From a virus (Duplodnaviria > Heunggongvirae > Uroviricota > Caudoviricetes): a DNA stretch of 25,514 nt. Positions within the stretch are counted from its first letter, which is position 1. Each line of letters starts with the position of its first letter. A program made the position numbers. The DNA lies in the IMG/VR virus record IMGVR_UViG_2537562192_000014, positions 1-25,514 of that record. The stretch is one strand, 5' to 3'. This document shows, in pieces, positions 18,001 to 21,000 of the stretch.

Positions 18001-21000
18001 CTCGTTAAGCCTGTAACTTCCCCTACCATCCCCGACATCCCGTCGGGGTTTTCATATCTGGAGACAAAAATTTGAAACAGATCGCTTTCTACAGGCGTTC
18101 TGGAAGGCCCGGTGCCTTCCGTGGGTTAAAAGAACGCGTCACTTGGATGATTCAGTCTCGTGGTCGTCCTGTTACTGGCAGTGAAATAGCAGAGAAATTT
18201 GGTGTTTCACTTTGCGAGTTCAACAAGGTAGCTCGCGGCCTGACAAAGGGCAGTAAGGTTGTGAAAATAAAGGCTTCAGAACCATTCACCACAGACACCG
18301 GAATCGTTGATCGCTTTTTCTCCCTCGAATCAAATCCTCGTCGTGACACACCTCGCTCACGCAATGCCGTTCCTCCATTCAGTCGCAGAAGCCGTGAACA
18401 CGCAGCAAAAAACTGTCGCGAGGAATACGTGCAAAAGGCCGAACGCCGTCGCCGACTGATTAAAGCAGGACTTTACATTGATGAGTTTGAAAACGCGCTA
18501 TGACGAAAAAATACACCCTCATTTACGCAGATCCCCCCTGGACATTCCGCGACAAAGCAACCGATGGTCAACGCGGTGCAAGTTTTAAATATCCGGTCAT
18601 GAGTCTTCTGGATATCTGCCGCCTCCCGGTATGGGAACTGGCAGCCGAGAATTGCCTGTTGGCTATGTGGTGGGTGCCTACACAACCACTTGAAGCATTG
18701 AAGGTTGTAGAAGCGTGGGGCTTTCGTCTGGTGACGATGAAAGGATTAACCTGGAACAAATGCGGGAAAAGACAGACCGACAAGCTGGTCATGGGTATGG
18801 GTAGCACCACTCGCGCTAACAGCGAAGACTGCCTTTTTGCAGTGAAAGGAAATCTGCCCGAACGCATTAACGCCGGAATAATCCAGTCATTCACTGCACC
18901 ACGCCTTGATCACTCCCGCAAGCCGGATATGGCTCGAGAAAAACTTGTGCAACTTCTTGGCGATGTTCCCCGGATAGAACTGTTCGCCCGCCACACCTCG
19001 CATGGATTTGATGTATGGGGTAACCAATGCGGCACACCATCCATTGAGATGGTTCCGGGTATTGTTAAATTTCTGGAGAAAACCAATGAGCGAAAAAACG
19101 ACGTTGACAAAGGCATCACCAGTTGAATTAAGGCAGTGTCTGGAAATCGCAAATCAACTTGCCAGAAGTGGAATACGATTTGTTCCAATCCCGATTACAG
19201 CAGATGCAGAACTTCATCTGTTTGGTGAAATTCTTTCCCGAAAGCTGGATGAACTGGAAAAGCTGGTAGAAGAAGCTGACACCTCACCAACCGTATAACA
19301 GCCCCACCGACATTAAAATATCAGGAGAAAAAAATGAACGCAGTGCTCACAGAATTGAACAAATTAGGAAAAGCATCAGCCGAAAGTATTTCTAAAGGTC
19401 TCAATATTGATTTGAATGACGTTATTGACACTCTATGGAAGTTAAAAAACCAGGGGGTAGTAACTGTAAAAAATGGCATCTGGCAGGCAGTTGCAAGGGA
19501 AGTGGACAAAAAACCAAATATCGCCTCAGTGCAGCCAGTGCAGCCAGTGCAGCCAGTGCAGCCAGTGCAGCCAGTGCAGCCAGTGCAGCACAACATTATA
19601 GGCGACCTGCTACGTAAATCACAGAAAGAAGCGCGCCGCGCCGGGCGGAAACAGAAACGATGGGAGGGTGCATGTAAGGCGTTGCAAGAACTGAATAAAT
19701 ACCGTGACTTGATCAACGAATTGTCAGAGTGAGCGAATCACAGAGAGAATATTTTGAGAAACACCCCGCGTACATTAATATTGTTTTTCCTTTCTCTAAT
19801 GACGGGCGGTATCCTGTTATTCGCAGGAACAACATTATTTATTTTTGTTGCCCGGCTAACTGCGAGGATAATGACATGAAAATCACATTTGAAAGTTACG
19901 GTTTAACAGCAAGTGTGGTTATCTCCAGCTCTATATTCGAAAGCCGCAAACATCAGCATATCGTTGATGCAGTGAAACTCAAAGCCCCGGAAGTTACCGT
20001 CACAACACATGGACTTTTCAGGATACGAACGACGTTGACTACAACACACCTCTCGGCATGCCGTGTTTATGATATGGCACTCAAGGAATACAACCAGTGT
20101 TCGTCCTGATCCAGCGCGGGCAGTCTTTCGTTGATGCCAACAACTATCCGGTAGAAATATGCAAGGTAACTCTGACTCAGGTGATCTACCGAAGGCTCGA
20201 CGGCAGAACCAGAGCCACTTCAATTAGTGCATTTAATGAAGAATTTGAGCGAATCGAGCACAACGAACTGCATATGATTAAAGCGGAAATTGAGAAGGAA
20301 AAGCATATTGCCAGCCTTCGAAAAAGGCGCCGTACATCAATCAACTGACAACCGCCTTCGGGCGGTTTTTTCTTACACATGCAGAGGCAACTTATGCGCG
20401 AGTTAGTAAACCAACATAACCATGGCATTCAGCCAGTCATCACACCTGTTGTACAGATAAATGCGAATGAATGGGTAACACTGGAGCTTTTAATGGCTGT
20501 AACAGGCCTAAGAAAAGGAACAATATTACGCGCCAGGGACAGTGCGTGGATGAACGGCAGAGAATATAAACAAATTGCCCCCGACGGAACGCCAAAGAAA
20601 AACAGCGAATGTCTCTATCATCTTCCTACCATCAACACTTGGATCAAAAACCAACCCTTACCATCTCAGGATGTTTAATTCTTGTCCATAAGAGTATAAC
20701 CTGAGCGTGCTCTTGGACGCAGGAGGAACAATGGCGAATTCAGCCTATCCAGCCGGCGTTGAAAATCACGGAGGAAAACTCCGAATAACGTTTAAGTACA
20801 GGGGTAAACGAGTGCGCGAAAATCTTCGCGTGCCCGATACTCCGAAAAACAGAAAGATCGCTGGTGAGTTAAGGGCTTCTGTCTGCTTTGCAATCAGAAC
20901 GGGAACGTTTGATTATGCCGAGCGATTCCCTGACTCACCTAACCTGAAGCTATTTGGCCTGGTAAAAAAAGATATCACCGTCGGTGAACTGGCACAGAAA

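Follow-up and report, generated by a model that had tools for sequence, protein, structure and literature searches.

The PNB-2/M.EcoPA8orf6770P gene pair, probably encoding a two-subunit rRNA methyltransferase, in a wrbA-integrated lambdoid prophage of Shiga-toxin-producing E. coli

Introduction

The catalytic subunits of the two best-matching eukaryotic MT-A70 complexes, METTL3-METTL14 (human, RNA m6A) and MTA1c (MTA1-MTA9-p1-p2, Tetrahymena, DNA 6mA), need partner proteins for substrate binding. In restriction-modification (R-M) systems, the methyltransferase gene may be preceded, with an overlap, by a gene of another kind, that of a controller (C) protein, a small protein with an Xre-type HTH whose own gene has C-box operators upstream.

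The closest described system is that of the Stx2a phage phiPA8, whose holoenzyme was characterised by Gong, Chakraborty and Koudelka (Nucleic Acids Res 2024, PMC10810198). The genes for PNB-2 and the methyltransferase M.EcoPA8orf6770P are co-transcribed and co-expressed, PNB-2 co-purifies with the methyltransferase in a way that depends on the methyltransferase gene, and cross-linking gave a ratio of about 1:1. The methyltransferase alone showed weak, unspecific activity; combined with PNB-2 it preferred RNA over DNA more than 13-fold, the target being the 16S rRNA in 30S subunits, an assignment that rests on a SAM-consumption assay. Loss of the enzyme led to less spontaneous prophage induction and less Stx-dependent killing, and a DPPW-to-APPA mutant did not complement. 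PNB-1, encoded further upstream, was neither co-expressed with the methyltransferase nor required (PMC10810198). Deletion phenotypes were also reported in the preprint (10.1101/2023.09.20.558713), which is the only place where candidate rRNA sites are given (832, 1098, 1100, 1132 and 1190, from nanopore direct RNA sequencing).

The gene pair and its surroundings

The window, i.e., the whole stretch of 25,514 nucleotides that was analysed (IMG/VR record IMGVR_UViG_2537562192_000014), comes from Shiga-toxin-producing E. coli and is a lambdoid prophage integrated at wrbA. Its gene pair is listed with the neighbouring features in Table 1, and the RefSeq annotation of a 99.7% identical genome has both CDSs as well. 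The PNB-2 gene opens with a TTG codon, 8 nt past a GGAG (18060-18063), and this start is supported by the homologues, in which the N-terminal 25 residues are kept. The junction reads gcgctATGAcg, with the ATG of the methyltransferase at 18500-18502 and the TGA of PNB-2 at 18501-18503; the genes therefore overlap by 4 nt, in agreement with an earlier note on this DNA, which had described a methyltransferase whose start overlaps the stop of a 143-aa basic protein of HTH type.

Table 1. The gene pair and adjacent features (window numbering)
Feature	Coordinates	Strand	Remarks
AntA/AntB-type antirepressor gene	17348..18016	+	Pfam AntA E 7.3e-28; phrog_377 anti-repressor Ant
Intrinsic terminator-like hairpin	18030..18056	+	CCCCGAC-ATCCC-GTCGGGG then T run; between antirepressor and PNB-2 genes
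PNB-2 gene	18072..18503	+	143 aa, winged-helix, Arg/Lys-rich; proposed substrate-directing subunit
MT-A70 catalytic subunit (M.EcoPA8orf6770P)	18500..19126	+	208 aa; DPPW codons 18530-18541
DUF1382 gene	19086..19298	+	Pfam DUF1382 E 3.9e-28; RefSeq CDS of the 99.7% identical genome at these coordinates

The window PNB-2 is identical to that of phiPA8 (AKI86171.1) at 143 of 143 positions, and the methyltransferase to AKI86170.1 at 207 of 208 (99.5%), the one change being the conservative E50D. Gene order, ATGA overlap, upstream terminator and the DUF1382 and DUF1627 genes downstream are also shared. Judged by sequence, then, the window pair is the already published PNB-2/M.EcoPA8orf6770P of Stx phages. 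The two phages differ further out. Beyond gp7, phiPA8 has opposite-strand genes, including a HigA-like one, whereas the window prophage lies at wrbA with a different integrase module. The antirepressor gene, which RefSeq starts at 17378 in window numbering, occupies the position of phiPA8 “PNB-1”/gp7 and lies outside the enzyme; the N-terminal half of the phiPA8 protein is unlike that of the window, and since only the C-terminal ~90 residues are common to both, the N-terminus is mosaic.

The hairpin was detected by a terminator scan, and window positions 18020-18061 are identical to the phiPA8 terminator sequence printed in PMC10810198. A promoter scan found no sigma-70-like promoter directly 5' of PNB-2, from the 3' end of the antirepressor gene to 18072, and the total of sigma-70-like sites in the region was not above that in shuffled sequence. 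On the other side, the last 41 nt of the methyltransferase gene also lie within the DUF1382 gene, a member of the same operon that is kept beside the pair in 20 of 21 viral contigs of the STEC clade.

The absence of an adjacent restriction endonuclease, to which the earlier note had drawn attention, was borne out by searches of the neighbours (antirepressor, DUF1382, DUF1627, DUF4222, excisionase and integrase), which gave no nuclease or defence match in Pfam, PADLOC or RefSeq annotation. The pair thus lacks the cognate endonuclease of a Type II restriction-modification system.

The methyltransferase

The 208-aa protein matches the Pfam MT-A70 family (PF05063) over the whole profile (1-172 of 172; 81 bits against a gathering cut-off of 23.9 bits, E 1.3e-22), with DPPW, a form of the catalytic [DNSH]PP[YFW] motif, at residues 11-14. 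This agrees with the family and motif first proposed for it, and the catalytic residues, whose conservation was to be checked by alignment, are indeed kept: P12, P13 and W14 are invariant and D11 is present in at least 90% of the 31 homologues. MT-A70 is its only Pfam match, with none to the Dam families (D12 class, PF02086; phage Dam, PF05869); NCBIfam has no family for it or for PNB-2, and PADLOC places it in MTase_II (Type II MTase, E 8.8e-86). It is a bare MT-A70 core of ~200 aa, without a separate target-recognition domain.

Among solved structures, the closest by sequence are Tetrahymena MTA1 (E 2e-12) and METTL3 (E 1e-4), and METTL3 and MTA1 are also the top Foldseek matches (E ~1e-13, TM 0.63-0.67) of the AlphaFold2 model (pLDDT 79). 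The MT-A70 fold and a DPPW-type motif are thus common to the phage and eukaryotic enzymes, although the identity is only 20-26%. Since the DNA 6mA enzyme MTA1 is closer by sequence than the RNA enzyme METTL3, this family likeness does not favour RNA as the substrate. The closest solved relatives are all multi-subunit enzymes, which was counted for a two-subunit explanation of the pair. The partner differs from those of the eukaryotic complexes: here it is a small winged-helix protein and not a second MT-A70 paralogue, and no MT-A70 pseudo-enzyme is encoded near the pair according to Pfam and RefSeq annotation.

PNB-2

PNB-2 matches phrog_1680 over its full length (E 2.7e-79). Its AlphaFold2 model consists of a winged helix (residues 19-85), a disordered basic linker (92-103) and a long helix (105-131); Foldseek returned only weak, generic winged-helix matches for this model, and a PDB sequence search nothing significant. 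When the two proteins were searched as a concatenated query, no natural PNB-2::MT-A70 fusion appeared and coverage never exceeded 63%, the fusions encountered being a PerC-like::MT-A70 protein and a deletion hybrid.

One proposal is that PNB-2 is mainly a transcriptional regulator, controller-like, which times the expression of the methyltransferase and associates with the enzyme incidentally. It would be in keeping with the predicted winged helix, with the “regulator” label that several PNB-2 records bear at NCBI, with a gene immediately 5' of and overlapping that of the methyltransferase, as for C proteins, and with the retention of PNB-2 homologues while the downstream methyltransferase family changes (see below), which would suit a generic regulator. 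The Xre-type HTH of a controller protein was not found, however: Pfam gave no HTH_3 or other Xre-type match, its only hit being HTH_11 below threshold (17.7 bits against 25), and there is no curated regulator family in NCBIfam. From sequence and model, PNB-2 therefore does not appear to be an R-M controller protein. The terminator and the SD sequence of the gene, moreover, lie just ~10 nt apart. Against the proposal stand also the co-purification that depends on the methyltransferase gene, the 1:1 cross-linking, and the shift in substrate preference in vitro, where transcription is irrelevant (PMC10810198). A mainly regulatory PNB-2 is thus considered very improbable.

The reading of the pair as a regulator plus an orphan DNA methyltransferase, as first put forward, is consequently only partly right. 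The enzyme is an orphan in having no cognate endonuclease, and its translation is coupled to that of a basic protein of HTH type, but the published complex prefers 16S rRNA in 30S subunits to DNA, and the upstream protein is not a separate regulator but a co-purifying subunit that sets the substrate preference (PMC10810198).

Distribution of the pair and of PNB-2 homologues

Throughout the STEC clade (21 viral contigs), the start of the MT-A70 gene precedes the PNB-2 stop by 3 nt. The same 4-nt overlap is found in a second clade (33 of 54 contigs), although PNB-2 is there only ~54% and MT-A70 only 44% identical to the window proteins, and the coupled MT-A70 carries a 23-residue insertion. Its conservation in both clades supports, at the level of sequence, a functional pair.

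Beyond STEC, PNB-2-like cassettes occur in lambdoid or P22-like prophages of Enterobacter, Klebsiella, Raoultella, Citrobacter and E. coli. They follow the recombination genes of the early-left operon; their PNB-2 is 51-60% identical to that of the window, and its gene often overlaps an MT-A70 gene by 4 nt. The partner gene is, however, frequently another one. Of 18 species-representative genomes with PNB-2 homologues, 16 have the homologue directly 5' of unrelated DNA-modification genes, and only three carry an MT-A70 gene. A modification gene was found at most 200 nt away in 15 of these 18 species-level genomes, and at most 2 kb away in all 54 non-STEC viral contigs. The alternative enzymes identified with Pfam and PHROGs are PF05869 Dam, D12 Dam, N6_N4, C5, a C5/D12 fusion, DndB and a DpdA-like protein, often preceded by an ORF of 50-55 aa; in Klebsiella oxytoca, the PNB-2 homologue overlaps a PF05869 Dam gene by 4 nt. 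PF05869 and D12 enzymes also take the equivalent position in other prophages, and their sequences are unrelated to that of the window methyltransferase.

The closest relatives of the methyltransferase itself (74-79% identical), on the other hand, occur without PNB-2 and stand alone in nin or lysis regions. The ORFs upstream of them (a PerC-like protein of 83 aa, an unrelated one of 82 aa and a hydrophobic one of 44 aa) have, compared by eye, no obvious similarity to each other or to PNB-2 that would indicate a common upstream partner.

The intact pair is present in at least 132 complete E. coli genomes; of all such genomes with the methyltransferase gene, about half lack it. In the EC4115-type allele, PNB-2 is replaced save for its last 10 codons. 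The absence of PNB-2 from many methyltransferase-positive genomes had been tentatively ascribed to assembly problems (PMC10810198); at least in part, however, it is a true mosaic allele, as it is present in closed genomes.

RNA or DNA as the substrate

Taken together with the published biochemistry, it is probable, though well short of certain, that the pair encodes the two-subunit PNB-2/M.EcoPA8orf6770P rRNA methyltransferase of Stx-type lambdoid prophages. PNB-2 would serve as the nucleic-acid-binding subunit that targets the methyltransferase, in a role that may be likened to that of METTL14 for METTL3, or of MTA9, p1 and p2 for MTA1. Methylation of adenines at N6 in exposed sites of the 16S rRNA might then alter or protect the ribosomes during induction.

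The main alternative is that the physiological substrate is DNA, either alone or besides rRNA, the enzyme being a phage early-operon orphan adenine methyltransferase of Dam-like (GATC) or relaxed specificity. It would shield phage DNA from restriction, on entry or upon induction, or set epigenetic marks, with PNB-2 as the winged-helix accessory of a phage DNA-modification module. Taken as a whole, this alternative is regarded as possible but unlikely. It draws on M.EcoGV of E. coli O104:H4 C227-11, which PMC10810198 describes as highly similar to M.EcoPA8orf6770P and which, as reported there from Fang et al. 2012 (a study cited in PMC6602927 as well), differs in that, over-expressed in vivo with no PNB-2 equivalent, it methylated GATC in DNA; according to the same paper, REBASE lists similar proteins as GATC enzymes. 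The O104:H4 Stx2a phage P13374 carries the region at 99.6% DNA identity. As to other enzymes of that naming series, M.EcoGIX was the initial suspect and was rejected, being a plasmid-borne ssDNA-specific enzyme, and the non-specific M.EcoGI and M.EcoGII are separate entries in the STEC methylome table.

The PADLOC class and the nearest solved homologue, a DNA 6mA enzyme, also lean towards DNA, as does the setting of PNB-2 homologues at the head of a hypervariable cassette of unrelated DNA-modification genes; with the solitary closest relatives of the methyltransferase, which do without PNB-2, these cassettes mean that the window enzyme may act on DNA. Gene neighbourhood is circumstantial, however, and the position of the cassette could be a mere hot spot of recombination. 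Both the purified methyltransferase alone and the holoenzyme acted only weakly on DNA, even when this was dam-negative with its GATC sites unmethylated, and the preference of the holoenzyme for RNA was the more than 13-fold one cited above (PMC10810198). STEC methylomes with an M.EcoGV homologue showed no motifs other than GATC and CTGCAG, of which GATC is inseparable from host Dam.

A role in escaping restriction, as the earlier note had suggested, finds no counterpart in the published phenotype, which is raised spontaneous prophage induction and virulence; its expectation that the pair matters to the lysogen fares better, as it is just these properties that the phiPA8 enzyme affects (PMC10810198).

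Implications

According to the published work, the pair is an rRNA methyltransferase, encoded by the prophage, through which the spontaneous induction of Stx prophages and the virulence of STEC are tuned. Because this enzyme has already been reported, the window adds only one more carrier of it, integrated at wrbA.

The cassettes also raise the possibility that PNB-2 proteins are not dedicated to targeting rRNA but serve more generally, as interchangeable winged-helix partners or gatekeepers within a hypervariable DNA-modification cassette of enterobacterial lambdoid prophages; this is considered rather improbable. Were it true, phage or host DNA would be among the native substrates of the Stx-phage pair, methylation of rRNA would be a secondary or STEC-specific activity, and the EC4115-type allele would represent a naturally occurring variant that has no partner and acts on other targets. 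The tie of the PNB-2 family to DNA-modification cassettes thus bears on whether RNA or DNA is the substrate, in a manner that can be tested.

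The gene pair and its published counterpart

The 208-aa protein matches Pfam MT-A70 across the whole profile (81 bits, E 1.3e-22) and has DPPW at residues 11-14, conserved among 31 homologues; the 143-aa protein encoded upstream gave only a sub-threshold HTH_11 match in Pfam. In the raw sequence, GGAG at 18060-18063 lies 8 nt 5′ of the upstream gene's TTG, and the genes meet in an ATGA junction, where the methyltransferase ATG (18500-18502) overlaps the TGA of its partner (18501-18503). The surrounding genes encode an AntA-type antirepressor, DUF1382, DUF1627 and DUF4222 proteins, an excisionase and an integrase, and no nuclease or defence signature was found among the pair's neighbours. 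On these grounds the earlier note had observed correctly, in all details, an MT-A70 gene with DPPW, an overlapping basic HTH-type ORF and no neighbouring endonuclease.

The MT-A70 enzyme of the Stx prophage phiPA8 was characterised by Gong, Chakraborty and Koudelka (NAR 2024; PMC10810198). Window positions 18020-18061 are identical to the phiPA8 terminator sequence printed there, and comparison with the phiPA8 record KP682374 showed the 143-aa protein to be identical to gp6, or PNB-2 (143/143), and the methyltransferase to gp5, or M.EcoPA8orf6770P, at 207/208 residues (E50D); the window antirepressor shares the C-terminal part alone with gp7 (PNB-1). Judged by sequence, the pair is thus the already characterised PNB-2/M.EcoPA8orf6770P system, and the locus has every sequence-level feature of both the MT-A70 family and this published enzyme.

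Features of the window discussed in the text
Feature	Position	Strand	Remark
S24/HTH repressor gene	4895-5608		
ClpP-like SDH-type serine protease (NfeD-like) gene	6037-6948	+	303 aa
Rfam isrK and C4 antisense RNA	8473-8660	+	58.7 and 77.1 bits
Rha/Ash-type gene	8577-9359	+	
DUF2303/YfdQ gene	12963-13784	+	early-left operon, same as pair
Gene without family match	13861-14304	+	147 aa; early-left operon, same as pair
PAPS-reductase-like gene	14412-15290	+	early-left operon, same as pair
Sigma-70-like site	17126-17155		TTGACA-18-CATACT
Rfam sRNA-Xcc1 (RF02221)	17247-17336	+	65.4 bits; gathering score 53
G+C-rich hairpin and T run	18030-18056	+	between antirepressor gene and 143-aa ORF
PNB-2 gene	18072-18503	+	143 aa, TTG start
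MT-A70 methyltransferase gene	18500-19126	+	208 aa
DUF1627 gene	19334-19732	+	
Integrase ORF	20707-22041	+	
wrbA reading frame	22038-22616	+	

Prophage setting

The window DNA is 99-100% identical to prophages of many Shiga-toxin-producing E. coli, and since wrbA, yccJ and agp come after the integrase in the best-matching genome, it represents a wrbA-integrated lambdoid prophage. The 2 kb around the pair recur at 99.6% identity in phage P13374 (O104:H4, Stx2a) and are present in 246 phage records, mostly of Stx-converting phages. The wrbA reading frame begins inside the integrase ORF, with a 4-nt overlap, so that the prophage end provides the wrbA 5′ end at this attachment site.

Upstream of the pair, sRNA-Xcc1, also annotated in one phage record (LC710660), sits within the 325-nt gap from the DUF551 gene to the antirepressor gene, with the sigma-70-like site just 5′ of it. 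The DUF1627 gene contains a perfect 9-nt tandem repeat, CAGTGCAGC, in 7 copies (19527-19589) encoding (VQP)n; in NZ_CP027340, a 99.7% identical genome, this gene is shorter by 9 nt, which indicates that copy number differs between strains. The isrK and C4 RNAs lie directly 5′ of the Rha/Ash-type gene and overlap its start, a layout within a lambdoid prophage that resembles the c4-ant immunity module of P1/P7. The ClpP-like protease gene, which adjoins the repressor gene within an immunity region of low GC (0.375-0.40), looks like a moron, and the three genes from 12963 to 15290 may form another nucleic-acid-modification or auxiliary module.

PNB-2 and its modification-gene neighbours

Only 65 clusters, every one from Enterobacteriaceae, make up the small PNB-2 family, which corresponds to phrog_1680; the MT-A70 family around the methyltransferase is large, with >3,272 clusters at an E-value cut-off of 1e-10. 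Downstream ORFs were classified for PNB-2 homologues in 80 viral contigs and in 18 genomic loci that represent species. In all 21 loci of the window's own STEC clade the MT-A70 gene starts 3 nt before the PNB-2 stop, and a second clade, with PNB-2 about 54% identical, repeats this overlap in 33 of its 54 viral contigs, there with another MT-A70 protein (218 aa, only 44% identical to that of the window). Such long-term co-inheritance fits a functional complex.

At the species level an MT-A70 gene follows the PNB-2 homologue in only 3 of the 18 loci. A DNA-modification gene lies within 2 kb in 16 and within 200 nt in 15 of them, including PF05869 Dam (in Klebsiella oxytoca overlapped 4 nt by the PNB-2 homologue), D12 Dam, N6_N4, C5/D12 fusions, a phrog_757 methyltransferase, DndB and a DpdA-like transglycosylase. 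The closest relatives of the window methyltransferase outside its own clade (74-79% identical) reside in nin or lysis regions without PNB-2. PNB-2 thus stands at the head of a DNA-modification cassette prone to swaps, and the STEC methyltransferase lineage is able to exist without PNB-2.

The cassette repertoire of other Enterobacteriaceae prophages (loci L003-L109) also includes MT-A70 and C5 genes, with C5/D12 fusions of 544-814 aa; a 50-55-aa ORF (DUF1317 or phrog_11492) often separates the PNB-2 homologue from the modification gene. In another E. coli prophage (L120, 2757-3651) a 76% identical MT-A70 gene is overlapped by 8 nt by an upstream 83-aa PerC-like ORF, and a 297-aa PerC-like::MT-A70 fusion protein (P0073) occurs in the database.

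Alleles without PNB-2 in E. coli

The pair was matched in 258 of 5,426 complete E. coli genomes, at least 80% of it in only 132; in the other 126, about half, it is not intact. In O157:H7 EC4115 (NC_011353, L121) homology starts 33 nt before the PNB-2 stop, and an unannotated 67-aa hybrid ORF (about 2830-3034 of L121, equivalent to window 18470-18503) replaces PNB-2, keeping its last 10 codons (ending LYIDEFENAL) and the ATGA overlap. A common prophage family, phrog_1229/8038, whose DNA is present in about 900 genomes, accounts for the first 57 residues of the hybrid. Other genomes have a truncated methyltransferase gene, with a transposase adjoining in at least one. Incomplete co-occurrence of PNB-2 and methyltransferase was tentatively put down to assembly problems (PMC10810198); such hybrid and truncated alleles in closed genomes argue that it is at least partly real mosaicism.

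Mechanism and substrate

In phiPA2 an IS629 insertion in gp5 reduced spontaneous induction and amoeba killing, and the gp5 defect was complemented by plasmid-borne gp5 but not by a DPPW-to-APPA mutant (PMC10810198). The methyltransferase alone had weak, unspecific SAM-consuming activity; His-tagged PNB-2 pulled it down, cross-linking indicated a 1:1 complex, and this complex preferred RNA over DNA >13-fold, above all 16S rRNA in 30S subunits (PMC10810198). A follow-up preprint reported graded deletion phenotypes and ribosomes protected from Stx, and used nanopore direct RNA sequencing to propose candidate sites at 832, 1098/1100, 1132 and 1190. A phage rRNA methyltransferase, the unexpected aspect of the locus, has already been published.

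The PNB-2 model (mean pLDDT 72) runs from a winged helix (19-85) through a basic, disordered linker (92-103) into a long helix near the C-terminus (105-131), and gave only weak, generic winged-helix matches in Foldseek. The methyltransferase is a bare MT-A70 core with no additional domain; its model (pLDDT 79; final 12 residues <50) fits METTL3 and Tetrahymena MTA1 equally well (E about 1e-13, TM about 0.65). According to the literature, the two proteins form a complex whose substrate preference is set by PNB-2, presumably a nucleic-acid-binding targeting subunit in the role of the partner proteins of eukaryotic MT-A70 enzymes. The working mode would be that of multi-subunit MT-A70 enzymes, but with a small winged-helix protein as partner in place of an MT-A70 paralogue.

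The main physiological substrate is probably, with some reservation, 16S rRNA. DNA methylation as the enzyme's role is a live rival that we consider rather unlikely: the published >13-fold preference speaks against it, but the modification-cassette context, circumstantial as it is, argues that it should not be dismissed, and the close homologue M.EcoGV, according to the second-hand account in PMC10810198, methylated GATC when over-expressed alone. Moreover, the closest solved relative by sequence is the DNA 6mA enzyme MTA1 (E 2e-12, versus 1e-4 for METTL3), which makes the argument in PMC10810198 from RNA enzymes as the nearest relatives weaker than it is put there. Lacking an endonuclease, the locus is not a Type II restriction-modification system, and it does not belong to the Dam family. 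Of the earlier reading as a regulator with an orphan DNA methyltransferase, the pairing and the relevance to the lysogen stand; the published experiments show instead a PNB-2/methyltransferase complex preferring RNA.
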